From the IMG/VR virus record IMGVR_UViG_3300029528_000021, positions 1 through 5,684 of that record: a stretch of 5,684 bases of DNA; one strand, written 5' to 3'. The position numbers and the translations under genes are program-made. This document shows positions 6 through 5,588 of the stretch, piece after piece (position 1 is the first letter of the stretch; every line of letters begins with the position of its first letter). Under the pieces are notes generated by a model. It did no database searches, was not told the DNA's origin, and saw nothing but the letters and a program-made list of their open reading frames with translations. The stretch is from a virus.

Positions 6-398
6 TTATTCCTCCTTTGCTTCAGTTTCTTTTTTCGGTTCTGCTGCTGCCATTTTTTGCAGTTCTTCGAGTTTCATGGCGTTTGCCTGTGCGGTCGCTA
101 CCATTCGATGATACTCGTGAATGTTCTGCGGAAATTCCGTAATATCCGTGTATGTATCGTTTAATGCTCCCTCCGACAGACTTTTCAGAAACTGCGGGTC
201 AAAACTTGCTTTTCGGACAATGCTTTTGATATCACACTCATCCGCATAGCTTTCAATTTCCTGTTGGATGTCGATTGGTGCAGTTTCTTGCAGTACTTCT
301 TTTCCTTTTTCGTCCTTCGTCCAAACGTATTGCTTTTGCTCTTTTTCTCCTGGGTTAGAAAAGAAGGGCTTTCGCCCTTCTTCGTATCGTTTATTCAT
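6..398 (-). CDS. 130-aa hypothetical protein, acidic Lys/Glu-rich C-terminus; possible internal scaffolding (VP3-like) protein, placed immediately upstream of VP1
   Basis: ATG at 398..396 preceded by GGGAGGG 8 nt upstream (minus strand). Stop TAA at 8..6. The last codons AAG GAG GAA TAA themselves form the SD for the VP1 GTG start 2 nt downstream (tight coupling). No catalytic motif recognised, so function is inferred from size, charge and position only. Confidence 0.55.
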   Translation of the reverse strand: MNKRYEEGRKPFFSNPGEKEQKQYVWTKDEKGKEVLQETAPIDIQQEIESYADECDIKSIVRKASFDPQFLKSLSEGALNDTYTDITEFPQNIHEYHRMVATAQANAMKLEELQKMAAAEPKKETEAKEE

Positions 399-630
399 GC
401 GGCTTGCCCTCCCATACTTTTTCAGTATCGTTTGTGAACGTGCCTACTTCGTCTTCAAAGACTGCCAGTTTAAAGCCGGTATAGTCCTGGGGGCTCTGGC
501 CGATGAAGGTCGTTTTGTCCTTCTCCATCACGTTGCACATGCGTGCGAACGTTGCATTGTTTTTGCTCTCGCCTACCCATGCATAGCACTTTGCTACGTT
601 GTCCCAGATGCCATAATATTCGTGCTTCAT
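391..630 (-). CDS. 79-aa hypothetical protein (candidate VP5-like or accessory protein)
   Basis: ATG at 630..628 with AAAGGAA SD-like sequence upstream. Stop TAA at 393..391, 2 nt before the next ATG. Same strand and tight packing as flanking genes. No recognisable motif. Confidence 0.5.
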   Translation of the reverse strand: MKHEYYGIWDNVAKCYAWVGESKNNATFARMCNVMEKDKTTFIGQSPQDYTGFKLAVFEDEVGTFTNDTEKVWEGKPHE

Positions 631-648
631 AATGATTGTTCCTTTCTT

Positions 649-771
649 TTACAGCCGGATGCCACCCCGCATGGGTTTCTGGCTGAGGTTGATGGTTTTG
701 GTTTTTCGTGCCGTTACGTTGAACATTCGGCGGTCTTTTGCGCCGTTCATCTTCTTACGATGTTGTGCCAT
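649..771 (-). CDS. 40-aa highly basic protein MAQHRKKMNGAKDRRMFNVTARKTKTINLSQKPMRGGIRL; likely J/VP8-like ssDNA-binding packaging protein (not in supplied ORF track, below its length cutoff)
   Basis: Hand translation of minus strand. ATG at 771..769 preceded by AAGGGAG with a 7-nt spacer. TAA stop at 651..649. 12 Arg/Lys and 1 Asp in 40 residues. Microviruses encode a small very basic DNA-condensing protein (phiX174 J, gokushovirus VP8). Confidence 0.5.
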   Translation of the reverse strand: MAQHRKKMNGAKDRRMFNVTARKTKTINLSQKPMRGGIRL

Positions 772-979
772 CGTTGTACTCCCTTCTGATTAGTTCTAGC
801 TCAATATCATTTGCAAAATTTTTTGTTCGCCAGATTTCCTCTAGCATAATTTTTGCATCTTCTATGTCGCTTAGCTTTCGTAGCATTTTATATCCAGCGT
901 TGATTTCTTTGTATTTTTTTTCTAGAAGGCGTTTTAGTGATTCTTCGGGCTGGTCTCTTATGTTCCATGTTTTGTGCAT
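755..979 (-). CDS. 74-aa hypothetical protein, predicted helical, mixed charge
   Basis: ATG at 979..977 with GAGGAG SD about 9 nt upstream. Stop TAA at 757..755. Co-directional and tightly packed. No motif recognised. Confidence 0.5.
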   Translation of the reverse strand: MHKTWNIRDQPEESLKRLLEKKYKEINAGYKMLRKLSDIEDAKIMLEEIWRTKNFANDIELELIRREYNDGTTS

Positions 980-985
980 CGTGGT

Positions 986-1108
986 TTACTCCTCTTCGTT
1001 TTCGTTGATGCTGTCATGCAATGCATGATAGATTTCGTCAAGCTTTTCCAAAATCTGCATCATAAGACGAATTGCCTGCTTGACGTCTTTAATGGAAATA
1101 AGCGCCAT
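986..1108 (-). CDS. 40-aa small protein MALISIKDVKQAIRLMMQILEKLDEIYHALHDSINENEEE (amphipathic helix plus acidic tail); function unknown
   Basis: ATG at 1108..1106 sits 1 nt after the peptidase TAA stop and is preceded by AGGGGG with a 6-nt spacer. The longer track ORF 986..1186 starts inside the peptidase gene in another frame and is less plausible. Confidence 0.4.
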   Translation of the reverse strand: MALISIKDVKQAIRLMMQILEKLDEIYHALHDSINENEEE

Positions 1109-1109
1109 C

Positions 1110-1502
1110 TTATACCCCCTTTCTGTACTTTTTGGTACGCGTGTCGATGTGTACCCATGTGTTGTACACGATGATGCCGCATCCATCCGGAATGATTTTG
1201 TTTAGTTTGTTGGCAATTTCTTTTGCGGTCATACCATTGACCCGTATGTCTGCTGCCATTCCTCGCATGTGGTATGAGTACTTTGCACCGTCTACCGCTT
1301 TATTCCTTGTCGGTGTCCTGTATCCGCTGTTGATGTATACTGGCTTACCGACTTGGTTTCTTAAGATGTCTAGGATAGACACTAGGTATTCATCTATAAA
1401 AACTACTTGTGAGCCATCTTTACAAGCAAATTCTCGCACTTTAAAGTGCTGCCCTATTTTTTCGTTTGCGTCTTTGTCCATGATATAGCATTTGATGGCC
1501 AT
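1110..1502 (-). CDS. Peptidase M15-family (M15_3 / VanY-like, L-alanyl-D-glutamate-type) zinc peptidase; putative endolysin, 130 aa from the ATG
   Basis: Motifs in translation: FKVREFACKDGS, SGYRTP, YHMRGMAADI (H-x-x-G-x-A-x-D zinc ligands) and C-terminal WVHID (third His ligand). Size and motif layout match small phage L-Ala-D-Glu peptidases such as the T5 endolysin type. True start is taken as ATG 1502..1500 (AGAGGTGA SD, 5-nt spacer), not the track's GTG at 1511. Stop TAA at 1112..1110. Confidence 0.85.
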   Translation of the reverse strand: MAIKCYIMDKDANEKIGQHFKVREFACKDGSQVVFIDEYLVSILDILRNQVGKPVYINSGYRTPTRNKAVDGAKYSYHMRGMAADIRVNGMTAKEIANKLNKIIPDGCGIIVYNTWVHIDTRTKKYRKGV

Positions 1503-1526
1503 GTTATTCACCTCTCTTCATTTCTA

Positions 1527-1555
1527 ATTTTACCATTTTTTTTATCGCTTGTCAA
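1527..1555 (-). promoter_or_regulatory. Near-consensus sigma70-type promoter on minus strand: TTGACA (1555..1550), 17-nt spacer, TAAAAT (1532..1527), A-rich UP-like tract upstream; drives peptidase and downstream small genes
   Basis: Minus-strand read: AAAACAAAAAAACAATTGACAagcgataaaaaaaatggTAAAATtagaaatgaagagaggtgaataacATG. -35 matches consensus 6/6, spacing 17, -10 5/6. It sits about 25 nt upstream of the peptidase ATG. Confidence 0.5.
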
Positions 1556-1574
1556 TTGTTTTTTTGTTTTGAAT

Positions 1575-1588
1575 GGCGCTTTAGCGCC
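1575..1588. other. Short GC hairpin GGCGC-TTTA-GCGCC just upstream of the promoter (minus-strand sense)
   Basis: Perfect 5-bp GC stem with 4-nt loop, flanked by T/A runs. Possible attenuator, ssDNA structural signal or protein site. Confidence 0.3.
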
Positions 1589-1650
1589 TTGCCGTGTGGA
1601 GCGTATGCGGAACTCGGCTAAATCCATTCATTTTTAGCGCTGTGCGCGTT

Positions 1651-1761
1651 TTCAACAGTTTCAACAGTTTCAACAGGTTTTCAACAAAATATTGCACAAT
1701 GATTTCCGTCATTTTGACGAACTTTCAACATTTCAACAAATTTTCAACAAATCTTTCAACA
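1651..1761. repeat. Iteron array: 8 direct copies of TTCAACA (TGTTGAAA on the coding strand) in two clusters of four, spaced roughly one helical turn apart
   Basis: Plus-strand copies start at 1651, 1660, 1669, 1680 and at 1724, 1732, 1743, 1755, spaced 8-12 bp. Degenerate copies also occur between the clusters (TTGACGA 1714-1720, TTGCACAA 1692-1699). All are intergenic. Confidence 0.7.
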
Positions 1762-1861
1762 ATGTTTTTTGTTTTTTATTTACGTTTTAACGTTAAATTT
1801 TAGTACTTATCAACTTTTCCACATTGCCTACTACTACTTCTACAACAAGTTAATATTATAT

Positions 1862-1907
1862 CGCGCGTGCGCGCGTGCGCGCTACCGCGCGTGTGCGCAC
1901 GTGCGCT
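1862..1907. repeat. GC-rich alternating purine-pyrimidine tract (CGCGCGTG x2 + CGCGC, then CGCGCGTGTGCGCACGTGCGC) with perfect 12-bp palindrome GCGCACGTGCGC at 1895-1906
   Basis: Two 21-nt runs of strict Py-Pu alternation (1862-1882 and 1886-1906) in an otherwise AT-rich genome. Flanked by TATA-rich sequence. Potential Z-DNA or cruciform and imperfect long hairpin (arms match 14/20). Confidence 0.6.
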
Positions 1908-1965
1908 ATAGATTTAGTAATTTGATAGACTGAGTAGTCTGATACATGGAGTCTTTAGATGACAA

Positions 1966-1998
1966 TAGCCCAGTACTTACTTGATAGGTACTGGGCTA
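1966..1998. other. Perfect inverted repeat: TAGCCCAGTAC (1966-1976), 11-nt loop TTACTTGATAG (1977-1987), GTACTGGGCTA (1988-1998), 13 nt after Rep stop
   Basis: 10-bp perfect stem (11 with flanking T:A). Loop contains ACTTGATA. A second small hairpin GACAC-N7-GTGTC (2002-2018) overlaps the Rep stop codon. Candidate terminator and/or ssDNA origin-type structure. Confidence 0.5.
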
Positions 1999-2008
1999 GG
2001 TGACACCG

Positions 2009-3028
2009 TTAGAGTGTCCCTCTCTTCTTCATTTGCTTCTTTATTACCCTTTCTTTTGTCTTGCACTGTTCTGCAAAGTCTGTGTTTTCATACTTTAGTC
2101 GGTTTTCTGCTATTGCTGCTGCTTGTCTGTTCTGTTTAATTCTCCACAATCTTTGTGGGTTTTCGGCTTCCATCATTTTTTCATAATAACGCGGAATTTG
2201 TGCTCGCTTGCCGTTTGTGCATTGGATATATCCTTGTTTCCAGATTTCCGCTTTGTGTTCTTGATAATAGTGGTCTCCTAAGCCCGGCTTGAGACTCATA
2301 CATGCAAAAGGCTTTTGTTGCCCTAGCTCATGGTATGCGTTTGCTTTCTGGCCGTTTATTTCGTACATTTTTTTTGTGACGTACCCTGCAACATATCTAT
2401 ATGTTTCTGGCACTGCTTGTGCTATCTGTATTTGACCCATGCCCCATAGGTTTTCTAACCATTTACTTGTAAAATATCCGTTGTGTTGTATCTTGTATAG
2501 GTGCTCTAGGTCTGTTGGTTGCCATCCGTATAGGATCATATGATAGTGAGGTCTTGCTGTCTGTTCTCCGTACTCTCCCGCTACAAAATAGCGTAATTTG
2601 CCCCTATAAGCCTTTCTGAGACGTTTTAAGAACTTTTGAATGTCAGGATATAGCAACGTTTGGACGCTTTCAGGACGCTTCTCTCCCGGCTTCCAGATGT
2701 ATTGCACTTTTCGCATGATTTCACCTGTGTTTACAATCATTCCTGGTACGTGTTCATCGTCATAGGTTAATGTTATAAACCAAACTTCTTCTTTTGGATA
2801 GTCTCGTGCTTCTAATTCTATACGTGTTGTCCAGTCCTCTCTCTGTCTTATTCTACATCCGATGCACTGCCCGCACGGTATTAACATGACATCTTTTCTA
2901 TACATTAAATCTTCATATTTGAGCTGTTTTCCCGATATTTCAGAAAAGCGGGCAAGTGAATACACCCGCCCGCTTATGTCTTTGTTTTCCGGGTTGTACA
3001 GCCTTATCAATGGCTTGTAACAACTCAT
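2009..3028 (-). CDS. VP4: Replication initiation protein VP4 (rolling-circle Rep, phiX174 gene A homolog), 339 aa
   Basis: N-terminal MSCYKPL...PCGQCIGCR Cys cluster typical of gokushovirus VP4. RCR motif I FITLTY, motif II PHYHMILYG (HxH), motif III YVAGYVTKK (paired catalytic Tyr plus Lys). ATG 3028..3026 overlaps the VP2 TGA stop (ATGA). AGGTGAT SD 8 nt upstream. Confidence 0.92.
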   Translation of the reverse strand: MSCYKPLIRLYNPENKDISGRVYSLARFSEISGKQLKYEDLMYRKDVMLIPCGQCIGCRIRQREDWTTRIELEARDYPKEEVWFITLTYDDEHVPGMIVNTGEIMRKVQYIWKPGEKRPESVQTLLYPDIQKFLKRLRKAYRGKLRYFVAGEYGEQTARPHYHMILYGWQPTDLEHLYKIQHNGYFTSKWLENLWGMGQIQIAQAVPETYRYVAGYVTKKMYEINGQKANAYHELGQQKPFACMSLKPGLGDHYYQEHKAEIWKQGYIQCTNGKRAQIPRYYEKMMEAENPQRLWRIKQNRQAAAIAENRLKYENTDFAEQCKTKERVIKKQMKKRGTL

Positions 3029-3882
3029 CTTAAGTAATCACCTGGCCTTCTTTTTTCCCCGTAGGACCCAGTTTTGTCTTGTGGTGCTTGATAGCCGCTT
3101 TTTCTGTCGCTCTTTTTTGGTACGTTTTTGTTGATAGCTTTGCTTGTGTCTTCTCCGATTTCTGTTAAGGCCTTTTGCAGTCCGTAAGGCGTCATTTGTG
3201 TAGAACTGAGCATCTGCTGCCAGCTTTGCGCTGCATTGTACCAGTCGCTTTTACTCCAACTGTTGCTTTCGTATGCGTTAGGTACAAATCCTCCGCTTCG
3301 GCTTACTCCTAGTGCGCTGCTGCTTGCAAGTCCCATACTTGCTCCACTGATTGTTCCTGCACTTCCTCCCGGTGTGCTTGCGCCGCCGTTTGCGAATGCT
3401 AAGATAGGGTTAATCCCTGCTTTTTTCATGTCCTCAACGGCTCGCTGGTACGCTGTGTTTGACATGTGCTCTTGCCATTCACGGTTTGCTAGTGCTTCTG
3501 CACTGTTGTAGTTCATTGCTACGCTGTTTTCAATGTGGTTGTATACGCCTTGCATGATTGCTTGTAGCGTGTTATAGCCCATCTGTTTTAACATACTCTG
3601 GCTGTTGTATTTGCCTTGCGTGGCTGCTTCTTGTCCTTGGTATGCGTATGCCTGTTTTAGCCAGTCATTGACTTGCTGCACGTTGGTGCCCGATTGACTT
3701 CCGCTTTCGGAGTGTCCACCGCCTTGGCTTATGCTGCTGCCACTACTTTGGCTATTGCCTGTTTGCCCCCATCCGCCAAACGCTCCGGCTACGTTTTTAG
3801 CTGCTCCTGCAAAAGTTCCGATTGTGTTTGCTACGTTTCCCGCTACGTTTAGTGCTGTTAAGAACCCAGATAATCCACTCAT
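3025..3882 (-). CDS. VP2: Minor capsid / DNA pilot protein VP2 (phiX174 H-like), 285 aa, Gly/Ser/Ala-rich
   Basis: Immediately downstream of VP1. Low-complexity N-terminal region (GNVANTIGTFAGAAKNVAGAFGGWGQTGNSQSSGSS...). Size and composition typical of gokushovirus VP2. Conserved-looking GINPILAFANGG segment. ATG at 3882..3880. Confidence 0.8.
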   Translation of the reverse strand: MSGLSGFLTALNVAGNVANTIGTFAGAAKNVAGAFGGWGQTGNSQSSGSSISQGGGHSESGSQSGTNVQQVNDWLKQAYAYQGQEAATQGKYNSQSMLKQMGYNTLQAIMQGVYNHIENSVAMNYNSAEALANREWQEHMSNTAYQRAVEDMKKAGINPILAFANGGASTPGGSAGTISGASMGLASSSALGVSRSGGFVPNAYESNSWSKSDWYNAAQSWQQMLSSTQMTPYGLQKALTEIGEDTSKAINKNVPKKSDRKSGYQAPQDKTGSYGEKRRPGDYLR

Positions 3883-3910
3883 TTAAAAATAGCCCGGATT
3901 TCTCCGGGCT
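3883..3910 (-). terminator. Rho-independent terminator-like hairpin between VP1 and VP2: AGCCCGGA-GAAA-TCCGGGCT followed by ATTTTTAA (minus-strand sense)
   Basis: 8-bp GC-rich perfect stem (3891-3898 / 3903-3910) with a 4-nt loop and a 5-T run, directly abutting the VP2 ATG. A perfect SD AAGGAGG (3917..3911) lies on the upstream side of the stem. Confidence 0.55.
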
Positions 3911-3920
3911 TCCTCCTTTC

Positions 3921-5588
3921 TTACAGTTTGTACAAGCCCGGTACACTGTACAACGGCATCCGTCTTGTGGTTTTGTTTGCTACTCGGATAGCGCCGAAAA
4001 ATTGCGGCTCATCCTGCATGACGAGTGTGCGTGCAATTTCGGTCTTGCCTTCTCCCATCCAGCCTTGCGATAGTGTTGGTACGGTTGAATAATTGTCTGC
4101 GTAGTGCCAGAAATCCAACGTGCCTGTTGCGTTGCTTCGCATGAGGCCGCTTACCCGGTTTGGTTTCATTCGGTAGTCCGCCCAGGCCTCCTGATAGCCG
4201 AACGTTTCTTCGTCCGTTGCCGTGCCGGTCAACATGATTTCCTTTTTCTTTACAGGCTGCTCTCCCAGGTTTGCAAACTGTGGTACATAGTAGTCCAGTC
4301 TGTCCTCTCGGCTCCAGAAACGTTCCAAGCCCTGCTGATAACTGCGATTGTGTCGCACACAACAGACACCAATTACAAACCCATGCTCTTCAAAAGATTT
4401 GGTAAAAGAGCTTTCGTTTATCGGTGTCACTGACATTGCACCAGTTTCGCCCAGCGGTGACCTATCGTTTTCCGCTGTCTGCACGATTTGGTTGATATTG
4501 ACGTGGTATCTGCCACCGCCCAGGTATTCTGGAATCTGTACCGTTTTGTCGCTGATATTTACATTCCACAGTGCTTGTACCTGTTCGCGGTATCGGCTGC
4601 CGCCTCGTGCGAGCGCTTCGTAGTACTGCTGTACTGCTACGGCTTTTCTTAAGCCGTTGATGGTTGCTGCGGTTACACTGCTTAGGTCTGCACCTAAGTA
4701 TCCGCCTTTTGGAGCAGTGCCTTGGCTTGTTGATGCGCCTACAACATGTGTAGCTCTTGGGTCGCTTACTGTTCCTACTTCATTGTATATTTCTGGTGCT
4801 CCTGAGCCTGTACCGTTCAAGTAAATGCTATTGCTTGGTGTCATCTTTTTTTTCAGGTCGGTGCTGTCGAATAGGTTTACTGCTGCGTTACCTTCCATCG
4901 GCAGTGTTACTGCCGGCCCGCGCTGCGGATACGGTAAGCAGCTGGTAAAATAGTCATGGAATTTGTTTACCGGTAAGCACCTGCCACCGCTTATTGCTTT
5001 TATTAAGATTTGGTTTATATCGCTTTCGTTTTCTTTGCCGTCTTGATAATTTATATTGTTGTCATCGGTTTTGATGGTTGCTGCATTATCTACGTTTTCA
5101 TCTCTGAAAAATTCATTCCAGATTTTTACATACGCTCTGATTGGTAGTGCGTTTACTTTAAAAACGTTTTCAATTAGCGTTGGGACTCCCATGTAATCTA
5201 GGATTGATCCTTCATACGGTTCCGGATTTTCTTTTCTTCCGTTGATGGTGATCATGGGCACTTTATAGTCTTTTTTCGGCATCCACGGCGTTTCTTCTAC
5301 TTCTCCCATGAACTGCTTGAAATTATCCCATAGGATTCGGTTTGGACAATAGAAGTAATAGAAGTCAATGAATGCATCGTCCATCACCGGATACTTCGGT
5401 GTGCTCATTCGAATGATTGCTGCTGTATTTACGTTGAAGGTATCGCCCGGTAATACTTCGTCAACATAAAATGGAATCAGCTTGCCGGAATCGAACGTTG
5501 TTAAAATTGTCTGGTCGCGGTTGAACCGCGTTCGACTTGCTTTCATTTCTGGAATCTGATTAAAGTGTCTTTCATTGTTTCGATTCAC
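3921..5588 (-). CDS. VP1: Major capsid protein VP1 (phiX174 F homolog), 555 aa, Gokushovirinae type
   Basis: N-terminus NERHFNQIP...RTRFNRDQTILTTFDSGKLIPFYVDEVLPGDTF matches the conserved gokushovirus VP1 N-terminal block (HxF..IP, RSxFDRS, TTFDAGxLIP, DEVLPGDTF). Length appropriate. GTG start 5588..5586 with perfect SD AAGGAGGA and a 6-nt spacer. The nearest in-frame ATG (codon 15) lacks an SD and would remove the conserved residues. Confidence 0.95.
   Translation of the reverse strand: MNRNNERHFNQIPEMKASRTRFNRDQTILTTFDSGKLIPFYVDEVLPGDTFNVNTAAIIRMSTPKYPVMDDAFIDFYYFYCPNRILWDNFKQFMGEVEETPWMPKKDYKVPMITINGRKENPEPYEGSILDYMGVPTLIENVFKVNALPIRAYVKIWNEFFRDENVDNAATIKTDDNNINYQDGKENESDINQILIKAISGGRCLPVNKFHDYFTSCLPYPQRGPAVTLPMEGNAAVNLFDSTDLKKKMTPSNSIYLNGTGSGAPEIYNEVGTVSDPRATHVVGASTSQGTAPKGGYLGADLSSVTAATINGLRKAVAVQQYYEALARGGSRYREQVQALWNVNISDKTVQIPEYLGGGRYHVNINQIVQTAENDRSPLGETGAMSVTPINESSFTKSFEEHGFVIGVCCVRHNRSYQQGLERFWSREDRLDYYVPQFANLGEQPVKKKEIMLTGTATDEETFGYQEAWADYRMKPNRVSGLMRSNATGTLDFWHYADNYSTVPTLSQGWMGEGKTEIARTLVMQDEPQFFGAIRVANKTTRRMPLYSVPGLYKL

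Follow-up and report, generated by a model that had tools for sequence, protein, structure and literature searches.

In phage phiX174, gene E accomplishes single-gene lysis by inhibition of MraY, and its product is a membrane protein overprinted in gene D; in the canonical holin-endolysin cassette a small transmembrane protein accompanies the endolysin. Roux et al. (2012; PLoS One 7:e40418, PMC3394797) described 11 M15_3 peptidase genes from human-associated Microviridae; of these, five belonged to Gokushovirinae, and four of the five were closest to Faecalibacterium prausnitzii; homologs were found in holin-endolysin cassettes, an endolysin role was proposed and Gram-positive hosts were speculated. 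Kirchberger and Ochman (2020; PMC7062461) also describe a microvirus M15 peptidase, peptidases are among the few microvirus accessory genes and are exchanged between families (Kirchberger et al. 2022; PMC9239249), and cultured marine microviruses carry M15 peptidases as well, the paper describing them mentioning no holin. Among tailed phages, the endolysins of Faecalibacterium phages FP_Toutatis (AUV56799), FP_oengus and Lelie are single-domain Peptidase_M15_3 proteins, and LysPM1 (Proteus phage Homer), the ST79 peptidase M15A (Burkholderia phage) and Spp64 likewise consist of this domain alone (116–150 aa) and have Zn-dependent muralytic activity. SxHxxGxAxD and (W/F)xH are the motifs quoted for such characterized M15A endolysins (PMC13461873, PMC5025407). 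The LysPM1, ST79 and Spp64 phages have diderm hosts and a holin, and ST79 has LysB/LysC spanin-type partners in addition. The type enzyme of M15A, the Streptomyces albus G zinc D-Ala-D-Ala carboxypeptidase (PDB 1LBU), is a secreted protein with an extra N-terminal PG-binding domain.

The DNA analyzed here (the window) is a virus record of 5,684 nt, IMG/VR IMGVR_UViG_3300029528_000021. Its first 99 nt are identical to its last 99 nt, a terminal redundancy that corresponds to a circle of 5,585 nt, and the window is a complete circular genome of a gut gokushovirus, a small ssDNA phage. All nine recognizable genes lie on the minus strand (Table 1), and among them the gokushovirus-type set (VP1 Phage_F, VP2 pilot, VP3 scaffold, VP4 Rep and VP5) is complete. 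Matches to four Pfam marker families (Table 1) and to PHROGs 514, 8742, 942 and 24309 agree, as does the circular genome, with the earlier assignment of this DNA to a microvirus. Purine-rich Shine-Dalgarno sequences (SDs) precede eight of the nine genes, VP2 being the only one without a recognizable SD. Its closest relatives in GenBank are gokushoviruses from the human and pig gut, several of them with an annotated “peptidase M15”; KX513868 is 84% identical in nucleotide sequence across 91% of the window. Gene order is counted here from the sole sizeable non-coding region, after which the peptidase gene comes first.

Table 1. Features of the window and of the related genomes discussed in the text
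Feature	Sequence	Coordinates	Strand	Remarks
Peptidase	window	1110..1502	minus	Peptidase_M15_3
orf40	window	986..1108	minus	no family match
orf74	window	755..979	minus	no Pfam, PHROG or NCBIfam lysis-related match
Highly basic J-like 40-aa protein	window	649..771	minus	PHROG 10695
VP5	window	391..630	minus	PF20577
VP3 scaffold	window	6..398	minus	PF09675
VP1 capsid	window	3921..5588	minus	PF02305, E=6e-137
VP2 pilot protein	window	3025..3882	minus	PHROG 8742
VP4 replication initiator	window	2009..3028	minus	PF23343
Non-coding region	window	1503-2008		sole sizeable one
Putative promoter	window	1527..1555	minus	TTGACA 1555..1550; spacer 17 nt; TG 1535..1534; TAAAAT 1532..1527
Peptidase SD	window	1516..1508	minus	GAGAGGTGA
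Hairpin GGCGC-TAAA-GCGCC	window	1575..1588	minus	19 nt upstream of -35 hexamer
Repeat region	window	1650-1761	minus	8 exact copies of TGTTGAAA
GC-rich tract	window	1857-1910		~50 nt, alternating purine/pyrimidine
Hairpin	window	1966-1998		TAGCCCAGTAC...GTACTGGGCTA, directly after VP4 stop codon
Terminator-like hairpin + T-run	window	3891..3910	minus	between VP1 and VP2
Antisense ORF, 118 aa	window	1132..1488	plus	inside peptidase gene
Oscillibacter sp. PC13 prophage	NZ_FOXE01000003	5765-10728		
Hydrophobic 42-aa ORF of PC13 prophage	NZ_FOXE01000003	10600..10728		3 nt after VP2
Prophage	Muriventricola aceti H5_61	6560-11465		
N-terminal-TM proteins	peptidase-less prophages	L092 6589-6927; L099 139-450; L100 6644-6898; L103 7655-7981		
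AcrIC5-like 66-aa ORF	KT264799	3702-3902		PF22147

The peptidase gene starts with ATG and encodes 130 amino acids; an alternative GTG start at position 1511 is unlikely, as it falls within the SD. The protein matches Pfam PF08291 (Peptidase_M15_3) over profile positions 2–108 of 108 (E = 3.8e-22; 78.9 bits against a cut-off of 23.2), PHROG 894 “endolysin” (9.4e-43) and PF05951 (M15_2/DUF882; 2.3e-8), with a sub-threshold NCBIfam match to the L,D-endopeptidase MepK, and the outcome that the first-pass annotation had named as refuting, profile searches failing to place it in the M15 fold, did not occur. Both zinc motifs are intact, S76-Y-H78-M-R-G81-M-A83-A-D85 (SxHxxGxAxD) and W116-V-H118 (WxH), and these motifs, R62 and D120 do not vary among 78 distinct coding sequences from relatives. 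In the PDB, 1LBU alone is matched significantly in sequence (E = 2e-4); its zinc ligands H154 and D161 align with H78 and D85, and its GGFR segment, with the substrate-carboxylate arginine R138, aligns with SGYR (R62). An AF2 model built from a shallow alignment is of moderate quality (pLDDT 75); its best PDB fold matches are all LAS/M15 enzymes (VanXYc, VanY, 1LBU, Ply500, LdcB and ChiX), and the best 13 in Foldseek are all VanXY, VanY, 1LBU or Ply500 (probability 0.75–1.0, E ~1e-2, TM ~0.45). Since these Foldseek E-values are weak and the PDB sequence search returned only 1LBU, the family assignment rests on profiles and motifs; by these the protein is a Peptidase_M15_3 or MEROPS M15A zinc enzyme, predicted to be active and consisting of a bare catalytic domain without a wall-binding domain. 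The first-pass annotation had called it an M15 zinc peptidase of endolysin type, which PF08291, PHROG 894 and the intact motifs bear out, but it had also placed it with the L-Ala-D-Glu enzymes, and this has to be revised: the protein belongs with M15A instead of M15C, neither PF02557 (VanY) nor PF13539 (Peptidase_M15_4) matches it at E ≤ 0.1, the nearest solved relative is 1LBU, and Ply500 is only a distant fold match of the model (rank 13). The summed entropies at codon positions 1/2/3 among the 78 coding sequences are 47/29/107, and together with the invariant catalytic residues they indicate purifying selection.

Hydrophobicity was scored as the 19-residue Kyte-Doolittle mean (KD19), for which the usual transmembrane threshold is ~1.6. 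The peptidase has no signal peptide, SAR or transmembrane segment, as had been claimed: its maximum KD19 of 1.07 is internal, at residue 36, and its N-terminus (MAIKCYIMDKDANEKIGQHF) is hydrophilic. Among all coding-strand ORFs of at least 20 codons with ATG, GTG or TTG starts none is transmembrane-like (maximum KD19 1.18), and no overprinted ORF with an N-terminal transmembrane helix like that of phiX174 E is present in any coding-strand frame, so the earlier statement that the coding strand has no small hydrophobic ORF stands, even with an E-like gene sought as its refutation. For comparison, 80 related microvirus contigs were fetched from IMG/VR through the peptidase (relatives are counted as 82 below). 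No small hydrophobic ORF recurs in the 82, and the sole recurrent, moderately hydrophobic stretch among them is the Gly/Ala-rich N-terminus of VP2 (KD19 1.05 in the window; median 1.16 in 23 relatives). A hydrophobic antisense ORF inside the peptidase gene was rejected as a candidate, being open for at least 110 codons in only two or three of the 82. Peptidase-less sister genomes are likewise without any transmembrane ORF, and the nine accessory ORFs scanned in peptidase-less relatives contain no lysis-related domain.

A peptidase without a holin in a gut gokushovirus is thus a correct description, but one already known since 2012 and largely ordinary, and the novelty implied by the first-pass annotation does not hold, the combination having been published (Roux et al. 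2012, PMC3394797; Kirchberger and Ochman 2020, PMC7062461). The gut Gokushovirinae M15_3 genes (Roux et al. 2012; KX513868, KX513876 and KX513877) agree with that of the window in virus group, Pfam family, Faecalibacterium affinity and proposed role, and database copies are 61–91% identical to the window protein; nothing essential differs, and the window is a further variant in which the peptidase comes first after the intergenic promoter. A protein search returned more than 1,300 clusters of this peptidase type, the best 120 all at least 85% identical. What is added here is support for the host, from prophages in Oscillibacter and Muriventricola isolates and from a Faecalibacterium siphovirus homolog that is followed by membrane proteins.

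The best non-microvirus matches in the phage collection are the FP_Toutatis, FP_oengus and Lelie endolysins, which are 44–47% identical to the window peptidase over their full length. Directly behind the FP_Toutatis homolog (137 aa) come two holin-like membrane proteins (KD19 2.59 and 1.91), one of 131 aa with a strong transmembrane segment at its N-terminus, the other of 105 aa and tail-anchored; judged by this layout the locus is a conventional lysis cassette, whereas the microvirus in the window has no such membrane proteins. In more distant homologs the domain is joined to wall modules (GH25, phage lysozyme, PG_binding_1 or SH3), which argues that the assembled wall is the natural substrate of the peptidase domain. 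A scan of GTDB genomes with a single VP1 protein found nothing, and prophages came only from a scan based on a VP1 alignment, which located integrated relatives (43–46% VP1 identity) in large contigs, including those of several Clostridia MAGs and of two isolates, Oscillibacter sp. PC13 and Muriventricola aceti. The PC13 prophage, flanked by a XerC-like recombinase gene and radA, has the gene order VP4, basic protein, M15 peptidase, VP5, VP3, VP1, VP2, and carries an M15 homolog 47% identical to the window peptidase. From the prophages, the strong SDs and the TG-extended promoter described below, we infer a host among the monoderm Clostridia, in the Oscillospiraceae/Faecalibacterium group, in keeping with the speculation of Roux et al. 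(2012), the prophage VP1 proteins being only as similar to that of the window as stated above.

Several features of these relatives may be recorded separately. Off-frame noise dominated when the prophage loci were scanned for hydrophobic ORFs, and only non-overlapping ORFs with an SD were kept. One of these, the SD-bearing 42-aa ORF behind VP2 in the PC13 prophage, is a possible small membrane partner that is absent from the window. Upstream of VP1, several peptidase-less prophages in Clostridia MAGs encode a protein of 84–112 aa whose gene has a good SD and whose N-terminal part contains a single transmembrane segment, and these proteins may be holin-like or E-like lysis candidates in those prophage lineages. 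In the M. aceti H5_61 prophage VP4 is split, with its C-terminal portion on the left and its N-terminal portion at the right end, and the prophage genome appears to have been opened inside VP4 on integration. The peptidase and orf40 (see below) occur in two lineages whose VP1 proteins share only ~43% identity (MNRNNERHF... and MPRMERPRSKF... at the N-terminus), which suggests that the module has been exchanged between them. The peptidase-less Gokushovirus WZ-2015a (KT264799) has a 66-aa ORF that matches AcrIC5 (E = 5.7e-21), a candidate anti-CRISPR in a microvirus.

The peptidase gene had been credited with its own consensus promoter and a strong SD. Both are indeed present ahead of it: TTGACA-N17-TAAAAT with a TG extension (TGG-TAAAAT) is the genome's only 11/12 match of sigma-70 type, and the GAGG core of the SD ends 8 nt ahead of the ATG. 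Because 9% of dinucleotide shuffles contain at least one 11/12 site, which makes the match by itself only suggestive, the element is called a promoter for its position and its conservation: of 28 relatives that share the hairpin-to-peptidase geometry, 24 retain the hexamers and have a diverged spacer sequence. Ownership is another matter. The window has a single intergenic region, genes 3′ of the promoter abut or overlap one another up to VP1, and many other relatives have the same control region followed by other small ORFs, with the peptidase gene later and without this promoter directly ahead of it; the promoter is therefore unlikely to be specific to the peptidase. The most economical interpretation makes it the genome's main promoter, at the head of the whole gene string, with the peptidase gene as an incidental first cistron in the lineage of the window. 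The hairpin upstream of the -35 hexamer (DNA fold energy -6 kcal/mol, z = -2.6) is kept in ~50 of the 82 relatives regardless of the gene that follows, and it marks a conserved intergenic control region. The hairpin between VP1 and VP2 ranks best among the terminator-like sites and is the sole one on the coding strand; it is likely the 3′ end or an attenuator of the transcript from the main promoter, and together with the SD-less VP2 it suggests attenuation between the capsid and pilot genes.

The intergenic region has further structure. The eight exact repeats form two clusters of four on the coding strand (expected count 0.33; eight were reached in 0 of 200 shuffles), many relatives carry six to nine copies, and they look like putative iterons, protein-binding repeats for an origin or for regulation. 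The GC-rich tract is an imperfect palindrome with 25-nt arms (80% complementary) and TATA-like flanks in an otherwise AT-rich region; its fold energy is -21 kcal/mol, with a z-score of only -1.8. The hairpin directly behind VP4 has a perfect 11-bp stem and a DNA fold z-score of -4.7, equaled in 0 of 200 shuffles, and it could be a terminator or an origin hairpin. No credible Rfam RNA family was found anywhere in the window.

The second gene in the string, orf40, encodes 40 amino acids and is found in all 82 peptidase-bearing relatives, and also in each of the five peptidase-less gokushoviruses checked (MG945136, KT264799, MG945391, KT264798 and MT135258). The orf40-bearing peptidase-less sister genomes have VP1 proteins that are 47–49% identical. 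Nearly all GenBank records that contain orf40 leave it without annotation, and its product has no Pfam, PHROG or NCBIfam match. In 76 distinct sequences the entropy is 32.1 at codon position 3 as opposed to 5.3 at position 2, and both other frames are closed; by these measures orf40 is a real, strongly conserved gene under strong purifying selection.

In the likely course of events, the window peptidase acts as an accessory M15A endolysin that is made in the cytoplasm from the main transcript and cuts the host wall late in infection. The gene would have been acquired horizontally by a gokushovirus lineage from the lysis cassette of a tailed phage or prophage of Clostridia in the Oscillospiraceae/Faecalibacterium group. 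The main transcript would run from the intergenic promoter through the peptidase gene, orf40, orf74, the gene for the basic J-like protein, VP5, VP3 and VP1, and as its first cistron the peptidase should be made in the cytoplasm throughout gene expression, without an export signal. At the end of infection it would cut stem-peptide bonds of the wall and so speed or complete virion release. Like phiX174 E it would serve microvirus lysis without a holin, but as a soluble, horizontally acquired hydrolase rather than an overprinted membrane protein; its zinc-dependent muralytic activity is predicted, that of LysPM1, the ST79 enzyme and Spp64 observed. Against such a role, a cytoplasmic endolysin without a holin, a signal peptide or a SAR segment is normally inert. 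Since orf40-bearing sister genomes do without the peptidase, the gene appears dispensable for the life cycle of the clade, hence accessory, and since those genomes also have no transmembrane ORF, some other, unrecognized breach of the envelope should exist in the clade. A conserved core function of the clade probably brings about the membrane breach or primary lysis step, and the peptidase would come as an addition to it. Speculative candidates for this function include the hydrophobic, Gly/Ala-rich N-terminus of VP2 and small core proteins, orf40 for instance. That such a core protein (orf40, or excess VP2 inserting in the membrane) is what lets the soluble endolysin reach the wall without a transmembrane holin is a rather doubtful proposal; if true, endolysin release would have a new route here, which might also be the primary lysis mechanism of the clade.

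The absence of an export signal and of a holin partner would also be accounted for if the enzyme acted at entry, packaged in or bound to the capsid and opening a thick monoderm wall from outside for a tailless particle of 25–30 nm. A holin would then be needless, the likely host group is monoderm Clostridia, and the peptidase shares its transcription unit with structural genes. However, the peptidase is neither fused to nor overlapping with VP1, VP2 or VP3 in the window or in homologs, its multidomain relatives carry wall-hydrolase or wall-binding modules and no capsid parts, and its nearest tailed-phage homologs sit in lysis cassettes beside membrane proteins. A T=1 capsid has little spare room, and the sisters without the gene indicate that it is not needed for entry in this clade. 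A virion-associated role thus seems unlikely.

Could orf40 instead be a dedicated release factor of the peptidase, as a holin substitute or an export chaperone? The first-pass annotation had named this amphipathic 40-aa peptide as one candidate for bringing the enzyme to the murein, and the two genes do appear translationally coupled in most relatives: orf40 starts one nt after the peptidase stop, and its SD (AAGGGGGT) lies within the last peptidase codons. The peptide is strongly amphipathic (muH 0.7), and the small chaperone Gp1 aids export of LysA in mycobacteriophage Ms6. Yet it is acidic (net charge -5) with a regular a/d heptad pattern (V9, I13, M16, L20, L23, Y27 and L30), which points to a soluble coiled coil more than to a membrane-active peptide. 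In ~20 peptidase-bearing relatives other ORFs put 150–420 nt between the two genes, and this separation and the occurrence of orf40 in peptidase-less genomes argue that it is a core gene of the clade and is not dedicated to the peptidase as its partner. The role of peptidase-specific partner was rejected because of that occurrence, and a release factor of this kind is quite unlikely.

Finally, it is very improbable that the enzyme works as a holin-independent “protein antibiotic” that cleaves murein precursors (UDP-MurNAc-pentapeptide, lipid II) in the cytoplasm so that growing cells lyse, an outcome that would parallel that of phiX174 E by destruction of the substrate and would explain the missing holin: VanX and VanXY do act on cytoplasmic D-Ala-D-Ala substrates, M15-clan enzymes are the top fold matches and the M15A type enzyme is a D-Ala-D-Ala carboxypeptidase, but the closest homologs either are classical endolysins encoded next to membrane proteins or carry fused wall-binding modules, M15A endolysins have been made in the E. 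coli cytoplasm with no self-lysis reported, the ST79 enzyme being over-expressed in and purified from that host (PMC5025407, PMC13461873), and no sequence feature sets the window peptidase apart from them.

Microviruses outside the phiX174 group are abundant in the gut. The M15 peptidases are the only recognizable lysis-type genes in many microviruses, and no holin has been reported alongside them. The clade of the window is well sampled; its sister genomes with and without the peptidase, together with related prophages in cultured Oscillospiraceae, make the question of microvirus lysis experimentally approachable.
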